Part shown: one piece after another, positions 11,185 to 37,819 of the stretch | Layout of the letters: every line of letters begins with the position of its first letter | Position numbering within the stretch: position 1 is the first letter of the stretch | Assembly (NCBI GenBank): GCA_963764625.1 | Contig: CAVXTH010000006.1 | Location: forward strand, 256,001 to 320,000 | Length of the DNA: 64,000 nucleotides | Reading direction: 5' to 3' | From: Candidatus Krumholzibacteriota bacterium | GTDB lineage: Bacteria > Krumholzibacteriota > Krumholzibacteriia > JAJRXK01 | Translations under genes and position numbers: made by a program | The notes under the pieces: generated by a model | What the model saw: the letters and a program-made list of their open reading frames with translations, nothing else | What the model was told of the DNA's origin: nothing | Databases searched by the model: none

Positions 11185-12759
11185 TCAGGTCCGGGCGTCC
11201 GTACTCGGCGGAGGCAACTGGAGATCGATCATGTCGGGCAGAGGTTCGACCGGATCTTCGAGCCCGAACGGCGGGTTCGTGTCCGTTCGTGGCGGAGTAC
11301 GGTGCGATACGATCGACGACTGCAGCGTTTCTTCCGAGGGCAGGTTTGCCGCGCCGAGAGGAAGATCGGAAGGCTTCACCACGAAGTGTTGGATCGCGAA
11401 CACCACGGCCGCGGCCAGAAGGAGCGCGACGAACGCTCCCACCAGCGTCTTCCAGACCGGTTTGGGGTGCCCCTCGAGAAGCTCCCGGGGCTCGCTCGAG
11501 GGGGAGAGCGGACGGGCCGGGCGCGTGGGTATCCTCGACTTCTTCAACTTCGGAGCCACGGGGGAAGCGACGCGTTTGGACGCGAGCGGACCGGATCGCG
11601 GATTGGCCGGCGGCATCGCGCGTGTCGAAGGATCTGCTTCCAGCGGATTCACGGGATGGGAAGGCGGAATATTCACCGCGCCCGAACGCGGTATTTGCAC
11701 CGCGCCAGAGCGTGAAGGGCGCGCATTCAATTCGGGAATGTCGGTGCTTCCCACTCGCGCATCCATTCTCGACGACCTGCGCCCCGACCGCGACTGCGTG
11801 TGGGTGGCGCGCGGAGGGGTCTTTCGCGAGCCTGGGCCACGAGTGGAACCCGAAGCAGGTTGGGTGCTCGTGCTGTGCCGGCGGCGCAGGGACTCGGTTT
11901 CCAGACCCATCGTGAGTTCGGAGATGAGATCGTGTGGCCCACGCCGCGTCGAGCCAGCGAGTTGCTTCAGCACCAATACCAGTTCTTCCATCGACTGCGG
12001 TCGGTTCTTGGGATCTTTCTCCAGACAGCCCGTGATGATCCGCTCGAGTCCGGGCGGAAGGTCGCGACGGAGTTCGCGCGCCGGACGCGGCTCACGAGAG
12101 ATGATCGCGTGCAGGGTCGCGAGATCGTTTTCCCCCGGGAAGGGCAACTGGCCGGTGACCATCTGGTAGAGCAATGACCCGAAGGAGAAGATGTCGGTGG
12201 CTGCGGTCAGTTCGTCACCGCGCGCCTGTTCGGGGGACATGTACGCCACCGTTCCGTAGCTCTCGGGCCCGGTGGTCTCGACGGTGCGGCGCGGCCTGAG
12301 GGCTAAGCCGAAGTCCATGACCTTCACTTCACCGCGACTGGTGATGGCCACGTTTGCCGGCTTGATGTCGCGATGGATGATTCCGTGTTCGTGCGCGGCG
12401 GCGATTCCCAGCGCGGTGCCCAGCGCGATTTCAACGATCCGCGGGATCTCCAGACGCTTGGACGCCATGATCTCCCGGAGCGTGCGTCCTTCGACGTACT
12501 CCATGCAGATGGCGTAGACGCCGCCGTTCTCCTCGACGGAATGGATGACCGCGATGTTGGGGTGCTGGAGACGTGCGCACGACCGCGCCTCGTCCAGGAG
12601 CCGTCCCTGCGCGACCCGATCGCTGGTAAGCGAGCGCGGGAGAAATTTGAGCGCCACCCGCCGTTCGAGGTTCATGTCTACCGCGAGGTAGACCTCTCCC
12701 ATCCCACCGGTACCGAGAAGGCGCTCGATTTCGAAGTGACAATAGCGTGAACCGATCAT
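11185..12759 (-). CDS. Membrane-anchored Hanks-type Ser/Thr protein kinase
   Basis: LGTGGMGEVY, VALKFL, HRDIKPAN, DFGLA, GTVAYMSPEQ, DIFSFG; long S/R/P-rich linker and a single TM helix. Confidence 0.92.
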   Translation of the reverse strand: MIGSRYCHFEIERLLGTGGMGEVYLAVDMNLERRVALKFLPRSLTSDRVAQGRLLDEARSCARLQHPNIAVIHSVEENGGVYAICMEYVEGRTLREIMASKRLEIPRIVEIALGTALGIAAAHEHGIIHRDIKPANVAITSRGEVKVMDFGLALRPRRTVETTGPESYGTVAYMSPEQARGDELTAATDIFSFGSLLYQMVTGQLPFPGENDLATLHAIISREPRPARELRRDLPPGLERIITGCLEKDPKNRPQSMEELVLVLKQLAGSTRRGPHDLISELTMGLETESLRRRHSTSTQPASGSTRGPGSRKTPPRATHTQSRSGRRSSRMDARVGSTDIPELNARPSRSGAVQIPRSGAVNIPPSHPVNPLEADPSTRAMPPANPRSGPLASKRVASPVAPKLKKSRIPTRPARPLSPSSEPRELLEGHPKPVWKTLVGAFVALLLAAAVVFAIQHFVVKPSDLPLGAANLPSEETLQSSIVSHRTPPRTDTNPPFGLEDPVEPLPDMIDLQLPPPSTDART

Positions 12760-12802
12760 GAAACATCGAGTGATCAACCTACGTGCCAGGGCGTTCGGGG
12801 GC

Positions 12803-13624
12803 TCAGGGGGCGCTGCGAATCGCCGCCACGAGGCGCTTGGCACGGTCTAACTCTATTGGTCTATCCCACTTACCGTCGTGCTTGAGGCTCGTGCCCACGA
12901 TGAGCGCATCCGCCAGCCGGGCCAATCGTGGCGCATTTTGCACCGTCAAACCGCTCCCGAGCACCAGAGGCAGGGTGCTGGCCGCGCGGGCGCGCTCGAA
13001 GTCCTCGGGGGCAGGAGCGATGCCGGTCGAGGCGCCCGTGATGACGGCCGCGGAAGCCCCATGGAGTTCCAGCGTGGACAGGACGTCCTCGAGGCTCAAA
13101 TCGGCGGTGGCCGCGTGGCTCGCGTGCTTCTTCTTCACATCGGCCCACACCGCCAGCTCGGCGGCGCCAATGGCCCGGGCGTAGCGCAGAGTGGCGCCCG
13201 CGCTGGCCTCCGCCCAGCCCTTGTCGGAGAGGTGGCCGTAGGTCCAGGCTTCCGCGCGCAGAAAGTCCAGTCCGGCCGCGTGGGCGACGGCCACCGCCAC
13301 TTTGTGGGCCGCGAAGAGGACCTGGATGCCCACCCGGATCTCCGGGGGGGCCAGTTGACGGATTTCGTGGGCGAGAACCGCCATGTAGGCTGGAACCTCC
13401 GGCCCCATCTCGCTCTCCCGGAGGGGCGGGAAGTCATGCATGTTCTCCAGGAGGAGTCCGTCAAACCCAGCTTTCAGAAGGGCTTGCGCATCCGCCCTGG
13501 CCCGGGCCAGGCACAGCTCCATCGGCTCCTGGCCGGGGCTGCCCGGAGTAGGCAAGACGTGGATCATCCCCACCAGGGCGGGTTTGTGGCGAAAGGAAAG
13601 TGAGGTTCGAGCTGGGTGGACCAT
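12803..13624 (-). CDS. BtpA/SgcQ family TIM-barrel protein
   Basis: GMIHVLPTPGSP, LENMHDFP, ADVKKKHASH, VITGASTG, GSG, IVGTSLK. Confidence 0.9.
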   Translation of the reverse strand: MVHPARTSLSFRHKPALVGMIHVLPTPGSPGQEPMELCLARARADAQALLKAGFDGLLLENMHDFPPLRESEMGPEVPAYMAVLAHEIRQLAPPEIRVGIQVLFAAHKVAVAVAHAAGLDFLRAEAWTYGHLSDKGWAEASAGATLRYARAIGAAELAVWADVKKKHASHAATADLSLEDVLSTLELHGASAAVITGASTGIAPAPEDFERARAASTLPLVLGSGLTVQNAPRLARLADALIVGTSLKHDGKWDRPIELDRAKRLVAAIRSAP

Positions 13625-13688
13625 GCTGAGTCTCCCGAAGAATGTGCTGATTTCCGCCGAGAATCCGCTGGATTCTCCTAAGTTTTGT

Positions 13689-13717
13689 TTGACACCTCAG
13701 GGGCCGGTCCAGAAGAT
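13689..13717 (+). promoter_or_regulatory. Sigma70-type promoter of the histone gene
   Basis: TTGACA-17 bp-GAAGAT; AGGAGG RBS at 13755-13760. Confidence 0.55.
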
Positions 13718-13769
13718 ACCGGCACTGGAGCTACCTTTCCCCAGATCCTTTTGCAGGAGGGCTTACACT

Positions 13770-13940
13770 ATGGCCGAGATGATCATCTCCAAGGCGCGGA
13801 CCAAGGCCGCCGCCAACGAATGCAACGTTTCCAGCGATTTTTACGAGGCTCTCGATGCGAAAGTGCGTCAACTCATCGCCACTGCGGAGAAGCGCGCTAC
13901 GGAGAACGGCCGGAAGACGATTCGCCCCTACGATCTTTAG
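13770..13940 (+). CDS. Prokaryotic histone-fold protein (short alpha3, DUF1931/face-to-face-like), 56 aa
   Basis: MAEMIISKARTKAAANECNVSSDFYEALDAKVRQLIATAEKRATENGRKTIRPYDL: L1 'NVS', long alpha2, L2 motif RAxxxGRKTIxxxDL; AGGAGG RBS 9 nt upstream. Confidence 0.88.
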   Translation: MAEMIISKARTKAAANECNVSSDFYEALDAKVRQLIATAEKRATENGRKTIRPYDL

Positions 13941-13986
13941 GCCATTCTTCGACCTTTTTCCGGGAGAGCGGAAGTGATCCCGGCTC

Positions 13987-14015
13987 CGAAGCCTCTGGCG
14001 TGGCCAGAGGCTTCG
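13987..14015. terminator. Bidirectional hairpin between convergent histone and epimerase genes
   Basis: CGAAGCCTCTGGC-GTG-GCCAGAGGCTTCG, perfect 13-bp stem. Confidence 0.65.
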
Positions 14016-14026
14016 ATGTTGTGTCC

Positions 14027-15040
14027 TCATTGGGGCCCGACGCCCAGGCCGGGCGAGCCGGGAATCGTGATGCGACCCTGCTCCACCACGCGGGGTCCGA
14101 AGGGGTCTTCCGCCAGGAGGGCCGCGCCATCCAGATCGGCCCAGCGCGCCAGTGGGGCCAGGTGGGAGGCCGCGGCGATCCCCAGCGAACTCTCCACGAA
14201 ACAGCCCAGCATGACCTCGAGTCCCAGACCGCGGGCGGCGTGAATCATCGCCACCGCCCGTCGCAGGCCGCCGGCTTTCATGAGCTTCACGTTGATTCCG
14301 TCGTAGACGCCGACCAGCTCGCTGATTGCGTCCAGGCTCGCTGCGTCCTCGTCTGCGATCAAGGGTAACTTGGTGACCCCACGCAAACGTCGGATCGCCT
14401 CGAGCTGACCCGCGGGCAGGGGTTGCTCGACGAGCTCACAGCCCATCGCTTCCAGCCAGGGCAGCTTCTCCTCGGCCTCTTCCTCGCTCCAGGCTTCGTT
14501 CACATCTACCCGAAAGGGACGCTCGCTCCACTTGCGGAGACTCTCCACCGCCACTTCATCTGCCGGGCCCCCGCCCAGCTTGAGTTTGAAGATGGGCCAC
14601 GCTTCGGCTTCCTTTGCCCGTTCCAGGAGTAGACTGGGGTCGTCGATCGAAATCGTGAAGGAGGAGGGCGGAGTCTGGCCCGGATCGATGGCCAAGAGTC
14701 GACAGAGAGGGAGACCGCGCGCCTGCCCTACCCAATCGAAGAGCGCCGCTTCGAGTGCGCAATGGGCCGAAGTCTCCTTGGGGTGATGCGATTCGAAACG
14801 CCCCATCACTTCCTCGAGGTAGAAGGGACTCAACTCCGCCGGCGGAGAGAAGCTCGAAAACGCGGCCAGTGCGCTTGCTTGACTTTGCCCGTAACGGGAA
14901 TTGGGGGCGCCTTCACCGCGACCGGTGATTCCCTCGTGCTCGATCTCCACCAGGATGTTCGAGGCGATGAGCTTGCTTCCGCGCGCGATCGTGAAGGGTC
15001 GAAGGAGAGGCAGATCGAGAGCTCGGGCGTGAATCTTCAT
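14027..15040 (-). CDS. Dipeptide epimerase (L-Ala-D/L-Glu epimerase, enolase superfamily)
   Basis: PFTIARG, FKLKLG, RVDVNEAW, EQP, ADE, NVKLMKAGG, DLDG. Confidence 0.9.
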   Translation of the reverse strand: MKIHARALDLPLLRPFTIARGSKLIASNILVEIEHEGITGRGEGAPNSRYGQSQASALAAFSSFSPPAELSPFYLEEVMGRFESHHPKETSAHCALEAALFDWVGQARGLPLCRLLAIDPGQTPPSSFTISIDDPSLLLERAKEAEAWPIFKLKLGGGPADEVAVESLRKWSERPFRVDVNEAWSEEEAEEKLPWLEAMGCELVEQPLPAGQLEAIRRLRGVTKLPLIADEDAASLDAISELVGVYDGINVKLMKAGGLRRAVAMIHAARGLGLEVMLGCFVESSLGIAAASHLAPLARWADLDGAALLAEDPFGPRVVEQGRITIPGSPGLGVGPQ

Positions 15041-15232
15041 GGGGAACTCCCTTTGTTCTAACATCTTCTGTTACGCCAGGCGGGGCCTTTCGGCAAGCGC
15101 TGATTCGCGATGAGACCTCGATTCGTCCGTCCTGAAACCCGGGTGACGCCCCGAGCTGCCATCATGGGGAATCCACTCTAGATTGAAGGAGCCTCCCCGC
15201 ACCATGCTTCGCCTCCCGGGGGAGAACTCCTG

Positions 15233-16753
15233 GTGCAACAATCGGAAATCGCCCGCGTCGTCGCGGGCACACTCGACGGCCTCGCGGGACTGCGCGTGCA
15301 GGTGGAGGTAGATCTGGCGCGGAGCCTTCCCGGATTCCATCTGGTGGGTTTGCCGGGCACTGCGATTCGTGAAAGCCGAGAAAGGGTGGGCGCGGCCCTA
15401 CGCCACGCTGGGTTCCGCTGGCCGGACCGGCGGATCACGGTCAGCCTCGCACCCGCCGATCTTCCCAAGGAGGGAGCGGGGATGGACCTTGCCATCGCGG
15501 CAGGGATCCTGTTCGCCTCGGGGCAGGTCTCGACCACTTCGTCCGCGCTGCTGGGAAAGACTCTACTGGTGGGGGAACTCGCCTTGGATGGTTCCCTGCG
15601 GCCAGTTCGTGGGCTCTTGGCACTCGCGCTCGATGCGAAGCGTCTGGGGATCGATCGCCTCATCGTTCCTTTCGACCAAGTACCGGAGGTCGACGCGGCG
15701 CACTCCACGCGCCGGATCGGTCTGCGTCACCTGGCGGAACTGCCCGAGGCCGTCGACGCCTTGGATCGCCTTCAGCCCAGTTCCGTCTCGATACCCGTCC
15801 ACGATGAAAGTGGAGAACGCGACGCTCTCGCTCTAGCACTGGTGAAGGGTCAAGAGGAAGCCAAGCGCGCACTGACCCTCGCCGCGGCGGGAGGGCATCA
15901 CATGCTCATGATCGGGCCTCCGGGGTGTGGGAAGACCATGCTCGCGCATCGTCTCTGCTCGCTGCTTCCCTCTCTCAGTGGCGAGCAGCGCGCTGAACGT
16001 CTGCGCGTGGAGTCCTGCGCAGGCCTTGCGATCGATCTCGCGCGCGCCTCACGGCCTCCCTTTCGCGCGCCTCACCACACCGTGACCGGAGCTGGCCTCA
16101 CGGGGGGCGGCCGTCCGCCGCGCCCGGGAGAGGTGACGCTGGCGCATCGCGGGGTGCTCTTCCTCGATGAAGCGGCGGAGTTCGAGGGAAGCGTCCTCGA
16201 TCGTCTGCGCGAGCCCCTGGTCACCGGAGAGGTTCGCTTGGCGCGCCTGGGCCGAAGCACCTCGTTTCCCGCCGCGTTTCAATTGATCGCCGCGACCAAT
16301 CCCTGTCCCTGTGGGTGGTACGGCAGCCGGGTCAAGGAGTGCGCCTGCAGACCCGCACAGGTCGATCGCTACCTGCGCCGACTCTCGGGTCCCCTGCGGG
16401 ACCGGATCGAACTTTGGACGGTACTCGATCGTGAACCGGCGGAACACTGGTGGGAGGAACCGGACGATCCGCGCGAAGAAGAAATCCGCCGGCAGATTCG
16501 CGCGGCGAGAGAGCGGGCGCTTTCACGAGGTTCGCTCAACGCGGCACTGGATGGAGATGAGCTCAAGGACGCGTGCCGGCTCGATGAGAGCTCCCGGCTA
16601 TGGCTTCAGAGCTGGGCCGATCGCATGAACCTGAGCCTACGGGCCCTCGCCGGCACGATGAGGGTGGCGCGCACCGTCGCGGATCTTCAAGAACGAGCGC
16701 GAGTCATTCAGGAAGACCTCGCGGTGGCCCTGGCGTTTCGTCCGCCGGCGTGA
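15233..16753 (+). CDS. comM: YifB/ComM Mg-chelatase-like AAA+ ATPase
   Basis: VGLPxxAIRESRERV, LAPADLPKEG, GPPGCGKT, PFRAPHHT, LAHRGVLFLDE, NPCPCG. Confidence 0.92.
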   Translation: MQQSEIARVVAGTLDGLAGLRVQVEVDLARSLPGFHLVGLPGTAIRESRERVGAALRHAGFRWPDRRITVSLAPADLPKEGAGMDLAIAAGILFASGQVSTTSSALLGKTLLVGELALDGSLRPVRGLLALALDAKRLGIDRLIVPFDQVPEVDAAHSTRRIGLRHLAELPEAVDALDRLQPSSVSIPVHDESGERDALALALVKGQEEAKRALTLAAAGGHHMLMIGPPGCGKTMLAHRLCSLLPSLSGEQRAERLRVESCAGLAIDLARASRPPFRAPHHTVTGAGLTGGGRPPRPGEVTLAHRGVLFLDEAAEFEGSVLDRLREPLVTGEVRLARLGRSTSFPAAFQLIAATNPCPCGWYGSRVKECACRPAQVDRYLRRLSGPLRDRIELWTVLDREPAEHWWEEPDDPREEEIRRQIRAARERALSRGSLNAALDGDELKDACRLDESSRLWLQSWADRMNLSLRALAGTMRVARTVADLQERARVIQEDLAVALAFRPPA

Positions 16754-31097: not shown

Positions 31098-31184
31098 GGA
31101 GGGCTAGACCTAACTGGTAAGGCAGCGGTCTTGAAAACCGCCGGGCTTTTGCCCTTGGGGGTTCGAGTCCCCCGCCCTCCGCCA
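31098..31184 (+). tRNA. tRNA-Ser(TGA)
   Basis: GGAGGGC/GCCCTCC acceptor, anticodon loop CT-TGA-AA, long variable arm, TTCGA, CCA. Confidence 0.92.
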
Positions 31185-31245
31185 TCTGGCGACCTGGCGC
31201 GACTGGAGCGCGCCTCGGCCAAGGAGGCCAACGAAGGAGATTACG

Positions 31246-31333
<88 letters not shown>

Positions 31334-31358
31334 GATCGGGGGCTTTTCCCGAAAGACT

Positions 31359-31435
31359 GCGCCCATAGCTCAACTGGACAGAGCGTTTGGCTACGGACCA
31401 GAAGGTTGGGGGTTCGAGTCCTCCTGGGCGCACCA
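31359..31435 (+). tRNA. tRNA-Arg(ACG)
   Basis: GCGCCCA/TGGGCGC, CT-ACG-GA, TTCGAGTCC, CCA. Confidence 0.96.
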
Positions 31436-36782: not shown

Positions 36783-36870
36783 GGAGAGATGCGAGAGCGG
36801 TTTAATCGGCACGACTGGAAATCGTGTGTACCGAGAGGTACCGTGGGTTCGAATCCCACTCTCTCCGCCA
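36783..36870 (+). tRNA. tRNA-Ser(GGA)
   Basis: GGAGAGA/TCTCTCC, CT-GGA-AA, variable arm, CCA. Confidence 0.95.
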
Positions 36871-36915
36871 CATTTTCGACCCGAGCCCGCAAATGAGCGG
36901 GCTCGTAGACTCTGC

Positions 36916-37005
36916 GGAGAGGTGCCGGAGCGGTCGAACGGGACGGTCTCGAAAACCGTTGATCCCGAAAGGGGTCCCAGGGTTCGAATCCCTGCCTCTC
37001 CGCCA
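36916..37005 (+). tRNA. tRNA-Ser(CGA)
   Basis: GGAGAGG/CCTCTCC, CT-CGA-AA, variable arm, CCA. Confidence 0.95.
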
Positions 37006-37031
37006 GAACCCCCGGCTTCCGTGCCTTGGAC

Positions 37032-37460
37032 TCATGCGCGCGGACGCAGCCGCACCAGAAGAGCCCCCGTCCCACCCTCGTGGGACGGGGCGTCCTCGAA
37101 TCCGGCGACCAGCTGCGGATGTTCCCCAAGCCACTGCCGCACTGCCGGGGCGAGGATGGGGATGCCGTCCGGTGAACTCCGACCTTTCCCCACGATCACG
37201 ATCAACTCTTCGGTCCCCAGTGCACGCTTGGCGTGAAGGAAACTCTCGAGGCGAGCGAGGGCCAGTTCGAGGGGCATCTTGCGCAGCATCAGGCGGGGAC
37301 GCGAGGGCTTGGCCACCGGCGGCGGCTTGGAGCGGGTGGAGCGTTTCGTGGGGGCTTTGGGCTGCGATTTTCCGGCCGGAGGGGGATTCTCCGAGAGGTG
37401 CCGGAGTATCTCCTCGCGGATCTCTTGCGCGGAGCTTTTCTGCTTTCTTCGCTTGGCCAT
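37032..37460 (-). CDS. Stand-alone Smr/MutS2-domain protein
   Basis: LxLRxM..A..LxxFL, VIVGKGRSS, L...V..WL, GGTGALLVRL. Confidence 0.8.
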   Translation of the reverse strand: MAKRRKQKSSAQEIREEILRHLSENPPPAGKSQPKAPTKRSTRSKPPPVAKPSRPRLMLRKMPLELALARLESFLHAKRALGTEELIVIVGKGRSSPDGIPILAPAVRQWLGEHPQLVAGFEDAPSHEGGTGALLVRLRPRA

Positions 37461-37480
37461 GGGACTTTGGGGGCGAGGAA

Positions 37481-37509
37481 ATTGACAAGGGGCTGCTCCC
37501 ATGCTACTT
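37481..37509 (+). promoter_or_regulatory. Sigma70 promoter of tRNA-Ala/ffs/dnaX
   Basis: TTGACA at 37481, TGCTACTT -10 region ~17-18 bp downstream. Confidence 0.55.
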
Positions 37510-37521
37510 CATACGCGGCAT

Positions 37522-37598
37522 GGGGATGTAGCTCAGTTTGGGAGAGCGCCTCGTTCGCAACGAGGAGGTCGGCGGTTCGAGCCCGCTCATCTCCACCA
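37522..37598 (+). tRNA. tRNA-Ala(CGC)
   Basis: GGGGATG/CATCTCC with G3:U70, TT-CGC-AA, CCA. Confidence 0.95.
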
Positions 37599-37678: not shown

Positions 37679-37778
37679 TGGGCCAGGTCCTGCGCAGCAT
37701 CAGCTTGCTAATCCGGTCAGGACTGGAAAGTAGCAGCCGCGTGCGAGTCCTGTTGTGTGCCGCAGGCAGCCTGGCCCA
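37679..37778 (+). ncRNA. ffs: Signal recognition particle RNA (core)
   Basis: Long hairpin TGGGCCAGG...CCTGGCCCA with helix-8 motif GGTCAGG-ACT-GGAA-AGT-AGCAGCC; canonical position before dnaX. Confidence 0.85.
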
Positions 37779-37819
37779 TCTACTCCTCACGGGCAAAGCG
37801 CCCATAGCCCTGGGTCATC

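Follow-up and report, generated by a model that had tools for sequence, protein, structure and literature searches.

Bacterial histones have been accepted only in 2023-2025, and to our knowledge the tetrameric face-to-face (FtF) kind has been studied in bacteria in one genus, Leptospira. FtF histones are characterized by an alpha3 helix of 3-4 residues, a shortened alpha2 and an RxTxxxxD motif, and they differ from bacterial dimer histones in carrying the dimer-dimer residues R48 and N52 (logo numbering), which the latter lack according to the accessible text of Schwab 2024. The closest solved examples are HTkC from Thermococcus kodakarensis (9F2C) and HLp from Leptospira perolatii (9QT0-2); both bind DNA non-specifically and wrap ~60 bp per tetramer, as stated in the available portions of the two preprints (Hu 2025 preprint; HTkC preprint 2025). 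Changing R45 of HTkC to alanine converts the tetramer into a dimer (HTkC preprint 2025, available portion). HBb, or Bd0055, from Bdellovibrio bacteriovorus (8FVX, 8CMP) is another alpha3-truncated histone, described in the accessible parts of Schwab 2024 and Hu 2025 as binding DNA as a dimer and having no tetramer residues. The same parts name Planctomycetota as a phylum with FtF histones, and in that of Hu 2025 the DUF1931 pseudodimers cluster apart from FtF histones.

We analysed a window of 64,000 nucleotides from a Candidatus Krumholzibacteriota genome (3.57 Mb, 96% complete) that encodes a 56-residue protein, here called P0001. We consider it likely that P0001 is a tail-less, alpha3-truncated FtF histone that would form tetramers and, on the model of HTkC and HLp, wrap DNA and act as a nucleoid compactor beside HU/IHF. 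Because bacterial FtF histones, Planctomycetota included, are already in print (accessible text of Schwab 2024), the novelty of the finding is below what a preliminary description of this DNA had estimated, and P0001 leaves the understanding of FtF histones as a class unchanged. In database records, relatives already appear as 'DUF1931 domain-containing protein' or 'histone H3/H4'. Our literature search found no paper joining Krumholzibacteri and histone, and the spread figures in the supplements of Schwab 2024 and Hocher 2023 may include the phylum. The additions are phylum-wide persistence, tail loss or gain within the phylum and a family in which two FtF types occur together. An uncultured phylum thereby joins the known carriers, with the gene retained by roughly two in three of the genomes searched, and natural contrasts become available within one phylum, between tail-less and short-tailed forms and in the one family with two FtF types. 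P0001 itself is very small and easily made, and suits the assays established for HLp and HTkC.

The histone gene and its flanking signals

The gene for P0001 occupies window positions 13770-13940 on the forward strand, from an ATG at 13770 to a stop codon at 13938-13940 (included in the interval). An ORF lister reports the protein only as the C-terminal third of a 166-aa mechanical ORF (13440-13940). The front of that longer form runs antisense through a BtpA gene (12803-13624, reverse strand; PF03437, E 5e-48) and the 166-aa form is therefore spurious; it arises because the lister opens each ORF at the first start that follows a stop. The preliminary description had proposed a stand-alone histone gene missed as a separate ORF, and this holds. 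The gene has its own ribosome-binding site, AGGAGG at 13755-13760 (+), read from the sequence 9 nt 5' of the ATG, and GGAGG-like sites occupy the same position at relatives' loci. Downstream lies an intrinsic-terminator-like hairpin (13987-14015, +) with a perfect 13-bp stem, 9 G-C pairs and a 3-nt loop. Its predicted folding energy is -40.2 kcal/mol (z -3.30), with 0 of 200 shuffles folding as well, and the T tail that follows is weak. Strong hairpins lie within 100 nt downstream of the gene in all ten relatives compared, with unrelated sequences, which is the pattern expected of a working terminator. With an RBS and a terminator to itself, the P0001 gene forms a monocistronic unit. Its GC content of 0.579 compares with 0.623 across the window, nothing unusual in so short a gene.

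The promoter is less clear. An exact TTGACA, a -35-like hexamer, can be read at 13689-13694 (+), and a weak -10 candidate, GAAGAT (13712-13717, +; three of six letters shared with TATAAT), may follow 17 nt past it. A two-hexamer sigma-70 promoter scan returned 0 sites in 13400-14300, so TTGACA remains a -35 alone. Among ten relatives' loci, the hexamer occurs within 110 nt upstream in six, comprising L006-L008, where its surroundings are kept, and L013-L015; it is absent upstream in the other four (L009-L012). The GAAGAT letters are identical in L006-L008, AAAGAT stands at a distance of 18 nt in L013 and L014, and the three same-genus loci conserve the sequence that extends from a T-rich run over TTGACA as far as GAAGATACCGGCAC. 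The initial reading of a TTGACA promoter with strong expression signals therefore survives for the exact -35, the RBS and the terminator, whereas it fails for want of a good -10, with the scan empty and an RNA contig that starts upstream of the hexamer.

That contig comes from one of three salt-marsh metatranscriptome runs (X1-X3, from three studies) whose contigs are identical to the window, with 0 differing letters. The X1 contig spans 13682-13960 (+), the X2 contig 13740-13940 and the X3 contig 13750-13931; these are low-depth contigs that speak for presence rather than ends, strand or level, with DNA carry-over possible. The X1 contig begins 7 nt upstream of TTGACA, which counts against the hexamer as the -35 of a sole promoter. 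None of the X1-X3 contigs falls on the neighbouring-gene stretches 13400-13681 or 13961-14400, an absence that carries no weight for contigs. A further X2 record (record 3) was rejected as a copy of this gene; it represents a relative, with 2 differing letters and loose ends.

A protein of only 56 aa inside a longer mechanical ORF could be suspected of being no gene at all, a chance tail of the 166-aa frame or an annotation artefact. This reading is refuted. P0001 has 77 homologues in one database and 236 homologue clusters in a second, its protein sequence is conserved at 55-98% in 137 genomes whose DNA on either side of the gene diverges, and the RBS and terminator keep their positions in relatives. 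A confident fold model and the identical contigs in RNA libraries point the same way.

Separately, just 5' of TTGACA the divergent BtpA/histone intergenic region contains an inverted repeat (8-bp arms, 3-nt loop; 13659-13677, +) and, behind it, a T-rich run. The repeat is conserved in L006 and not in L007 or L008, and could be an operator or a BtpA leader structure.

Sequence class and the R-D clamp motif

P0001 has a mass of 6.26 kDa, a pI of 8.93, a net charge of +2 and no tail. Searched by phmmer against solved chains, it matched HTkC at 5.4e-7 (9f2c), HLp at 0.028 (9qt0) and HBb/Bd0055 at 0.46-0.51. A family profile built from 84 relatives (A1) returned the same order, with 4.6e-17 for 9f2c, 2.5e-14 for 9qt0 and 1.8e-11 and 6.9e-11 for HBb. 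The string NVSSDFYEALD, which the preliminary description had placed closer to archaeal DUF1931/FtF proteins than to Bd0055, appears letter for letter in the haloarchaeal relatives L017, L019 and L071, and together with the HTkC match this bears out the suggested affinity to the archaeal or FtF type.

Family databases place the protein less firmly. DUF1931 (PF09123), which the preliminary description had named for an HMM search, was the sole family matched in a Pfam search (E 2.7e-4, model positions 20-53 of 138), but at 21.6 bits P0001 stays just below the gathering cut-off of 21.8 bits. A DUF1931 match at E <= 0.01 was obtained for 26 of the 84 family members, and an NCBIfam search of P0001 gave 0 families. 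The DUF1931 model describes two-fold pseudodimers such as Aquifex Aq_328, of which one half is matched, whereas P0001 is a single fold. Among the matches from the second database we also observed pseudodimeric chains of the same FtF-like sequence type, in which two histone folds, seen as two matched stretches, share ~115-130 aa; these comprise P0096, P0105, P0112 and about 25 others.

The motif of P0001 reads R42-x3-N46-x-R48-K-T50-x4-D55-L56, within which R48-K-T50-I-R-P-Y-D55 forms the R-D clamp. The pattern R-x3-N-x-R-x-T-x4-D is present in 77/77 homologues (E <= 1e-3, one database) and in 126 of 150 among the matches listed from the second database (236 clusters); many of the 24 listed matches that lack it show obvious frame-shifts or truncation. 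Invariant columns in profile A1 arise partly by construction, as its rows were selected by a pattern requiring the motif. The spacing of R42, N46, R48, T50 and D55 equals that of R41, N45, R47, T49 and D54 in the Haloferax FtF histone D4GZE0 (Schwab 2024), a match based on spacing. The same five residues align with R49, N53, R55, T57 and D62 of HLp, and R42 aligns with R45 of HTkC.

The individual comparisons show both likeness and divergence. HTkC, the best sequence match among solved chains, is like P0001 about 56-59 aa long and tail-less with a one-turn alpha3, and the two share the tetramer arginine. In both, the chain stops immediately behind the R-D clamp, which lets its C-terminal carboxylate reach this arginine. 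Identity in the structural alignment is 35-36%, and at the position of N46, which P0001 shares with most of the family, HTkC has E. The setting differs too: HTkC is an archaeal protein that acts alongside nucleosomal histones, and P0001 belongs to a bacterium that also encodes HU/IHF and a tailed FtF paralogue. HLp is a bacterial FtF histone like P0001, but in the available portion of Hu 2025 it has a short tail at its N-terminus and is placed in a 'bacterial FtF' sequence group, into which the tailed paralogue falls and P0001 does not. That portion further describes Leptospira as being without HU, whereas the Krumholzibacteriota genome has three HU/IHF genes. Planctomycetota FtF histones, for example the Pla163 protein P0037, are nearest to P0001 outside its phylum, with 64-79% identity over the fold. 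The Planctomycetes-labelled proteins examined have Lys/Arg-rich N-terminal tails of ~12-35 residues or else have a gene call that starts at an inner Met, whereas P0001 and its f1 and f7 relatives are tail-less.

Predicted fold, tetramer and DNA binding

AlphaFold2, run with an 84-row alignment, modelled P0001 with a pLDDT of 91.3 and placed alpha1 at residues 8-14, alpha2 at 22-45 (24 residues) and a one-turn alpha3 at 53-55. The short alpha3, the R-D clamp, the lack of a tail and the net charge of about +2 that had been read from the letters are all borne out by the sequence and this model. In Foldseek, the first nine rows were HTkC, HLp and HBb chains (TMq 0.80-0.87), all of them alpha3-truncated histones, with HTkC first; the proposed histone fold is thereby confirmed at the level of prediction. 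We relied on ranking and TM-scores, since no row reached E <= 0.001 (best 1.7e-3), as expected for a model of only 56 residues. The fit to HLp is TMq 0.86 with an rmsd of 1.6. HMfA and HMfB ranked 10th or lower (TMq 0.46-0.54). Nucleosomal archaeal histones of the HMfB type have a full alpha3 of ~10 residues and an open dimer-dimer interface that permits hypernucleosomes, and the one-turn alpha3 sets P0001 apart from them.

A four-copy model scored an ipSAE of 0.88, whereas none of three controls scored above 0.00, with a pLDDT of at least 90 and runs agreeing in at least 96% of contacts. In it, the scored copy holds one partner along its whole length, forming a handshake dimer, and meets one chain of a second dimer via residues 41-42, 45-46, 48, 52 and 54-55; one copy was scored and the closed ring is deduced from its two interfaces. 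The mark was calibrated on two copies, not four, and was reached by 20/30 proteins solved as pairs and by 1/23 single chains. A tetramer prediction had been among the checks proposed at first, and its outcome fits the FtF class. This denotes likeness rather than independent proof, as the solved tetramers 9F2C and 9QT0 exist and the score may stem from the model's memory of them. P0001 combines four marks of the FtF class, namely a truncated alpha3, the R-D clamp motif, the tetramer residues and a predicted tetramer.

Could P0001 instead be a bacterial dimer histone of the HBb type? HBb resembles it in the alpha3-truncated fold, the R-D clamp and size; the P0001 model fits HBb chains as well as it fits HTkC and HLp (TMq 0.83-0.87), the family profile also matches HBb (1.8e-11), and the tetramer model is perhaps driven by memory of solved tetramers. 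We nevertheless regard a dimer histone as improbable. By sequence, HTkC and HLp far outscore HBb, for which the phmmer E is about 0.5. The logo residues R48 and N52, which dimer histones lack in the accessible text of Schwab 2024, are both present in P0001 (as R42 and N46), as they are in 77/77 homologues, and the modelled second interface uses exactly these R42/N46-type residues.

As an FtF histone, P0001 would be expected to act as follows. Two chains would form the usual head-to-tail histone-fold dimer, and two dimers would close into a ring-shaped tetramer through the alpha2 end, loop 2 and the C-terminus (R42, N46, R48, D55, L56). If it behaves like HTkC and HLp, the tetramer may bind DNA non-specifically through the start of alpha1 (S7, K8, R10, K12) and a loop-1/loop-2 bridge (K49, T50), and could wrap about 60 bp of DNA. 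P0001 might then be an abundant nucleoid-compacting protein beside HU/IHF. Tetramer formation in solution, DNA binding and wrapping, compaction and abundance are all inferred by analogy with these two proteins, and histone-based chromatin in this bacterium, as first suggested, is plausible on the same grounds. A check of the genome for HU/IHF, which had also been called for, found three genes above the Pfam cut-off, so that the leading part in the nucleoid does not have to fall to the histone.

Many eukaryotic histone-fold proteins act as protein-protein adaptors, and P0001 could likewise be a small adaptor with a histone fold that does not organise DNA. Its net charge of just +2 and lack of a basic tail would fit this, as would the three copies of HU/IHF genes and neighbours that hint at no function beyond a nearby YifB/ComM-like ATPase gene. 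The residue that aligns with the HLp DNA contact K21 is alanine in P0001, which like the low charge speaks against DNA binding. We judge an adaptor role to be quite improbable all the same. The S-K-x-R-x-K stretch (S7, K8, R10) and the loop-2 K-T (T50) align with the HLp DNA contacts S14, K15, K17 and T57 (Hu 2025, available portion), both of the nearest solved relatives wrap DNA in the available portions of their preprints (Hu 2025; HTkC preprint 2025), and close relatives in sister families and Planctomycetes have Lys-rich tails typical of DNA binders.

Spread, origin and a second histone

The genomes that match most closely are Candidatus Krumholzibacteriota (Krumholzibacteriia), in keeping with the earlier remark that the lineage is poorly studied. 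Three of the loci come from genomes of the same genus (L006, L007 and L008 from G025, G027 and G024), and some more distant matching genomes are submitter-labelled Fibrobacteraceae, Gemmatimonadetes or Eisenbacteria. Within the phylum, 137 of 208 genomes carry a match to P0001 at E <= 0.001, and the count among good-quality genomes is 85 of 125. The gene is near-universal in five of nine families (f1, 8/9; f2, 6/7; f7, 83/91; f8, 19/23; f9, 12/13) and, with P0001 as the query, rare or divergent in the remaining four (f3, 1/12; f5, 7/43; f6, 0/8; f4, 0/1). In G026, a 93% complete genome of the same genus, the P0001 query gave only the paralogue described below. Persistence across the phylum argues for a core role over a stray transfer.

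Tails vary among these families. Across the 20 loci compared, f1 and f7 have tail-less proteins of 56 aa, f2, f8 and f9 have Lys-rich N-terminal tails of ~8-15 residues, and f5 has divergent tail-less forms. In two f5 genomes, L098 and L099 (G052 and G047) encode a third, divergent, tail-less alpha3-type histone of ~58 aa that ends in NKRKTIYPFDF and is 36-38% identical to P0001; 7 of the 43 f5 genomes have this type.

The nearest proteins outside the phylum (64-79% identity) belong to Planctomycetes wherever they carry a name; Haloarchaeal and Aenigmatarchaeota proteins come next (50-57%), and then tailed proteins of the Bacteriovoracia type (41-50%). We built a tree of 77 rows and 56 columns, its rows picked by eye for spread from the ~330 sequences that our searches returned (28 of 80 loci plus 47 proteins). 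P0001 falls in an all-bacterial group of 23 rows with Planctomycetes-labelled proteins, among them the Planctomycetota FtF histones mentioned above; its support is weak (61/91). This group is separate from an archaeal-type group and from a tailed bacterial group, in a tree where 40 of 74 inner branches are open. Uniting the P0001 group with the archaeal-type group, a grouping named post hoc from the tree, cost 0.32 log-likelihood units (p-AU 0.469). Given the weak tree and this p-AU, we claim no source for the gene, be it archaeal or bacterial. The possible inter-domain transfer raised at the outset is not sustained, since the tree neither nests the P0001 group in archaea nor rejects an archaeal tie (p-AU 0.47).

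The source genome contains a second histone gene, on contig 9 of the assembly (G000) at 407553-407816 (+), which corresponds to positions 1414-1677 of locus L002. It starts with GTG after AAGGAGG, encodes 87 aa with a 28-residue Lys/Ala N-terminal tail and a net charge of +18, and has its own downstream hairpin. The protein is 36% identical to P0001 and lies in a clade starred in the tree, with Bdellovibrionota, Omnitrophota and Acidobacteriota-labelled proteins (99/92). Used as a query, it gave strong matches (E <= 1e-28) in f1 only, in 9 of 10 genomes, the source genome included; everything else it retrieved was a cross-match, either with the first gene or with the f5 type. Family f1 pairs a tail-less, archaeal-looking FtF histone with a strongly basic, Lys-tailed, bacterial-type FtF histone confined to f1. 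One could imagine the two, different in descent and the first of them old in the phylum, as true histone variants that join in mixed tetramers or take turns along the chromosome, giving different chromatin states beside HU/IHF, although we hold this to be unlikely. As a separate observation, GTTTGACA stands upstream of both histone genes (window 13687-13694; L002 1385-1390). The copy of GTTTGACA before the paralogue is 24 nt from the GTG, too close for the -35 of a transcript with that RBS, and the common element may be chance or a shared site.

Gene neighbourhoods differ between families. The BtpA, Ser/Thr kinase and mandelate-racemase-family neighbours are conserved within f1 only. A YifB/ComM-like Mg-chelatase-family ATPase gene lies downstream of the histone gene in the window (15233-16753, +), and it is directly 3' of the histone gene in L088, L089, L090 and L105 of f7 and in L010, L011, L012 and L015, all of these loci being outside f1. 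In f1, the mandelate-racemase-family gene (window 14027-15064, -) stands between the two. The linkage of histone and YifB/ComM-like genes is conserved.

Other features of the window were noted in passing. The Ser/Thr kinase ORF (11185-12843, -; Pkinase E 5e-49) shares 41 nt with the end of the BtpA gene, and the kinase start is probably further in than listed. On the forward strand, two three-tRNA clusters occupy 31099-31432 and 36783-37595, and a bacterial small SRP RNA (RF00169, 77.8 bits) lies right after the second, at 37681-37779.
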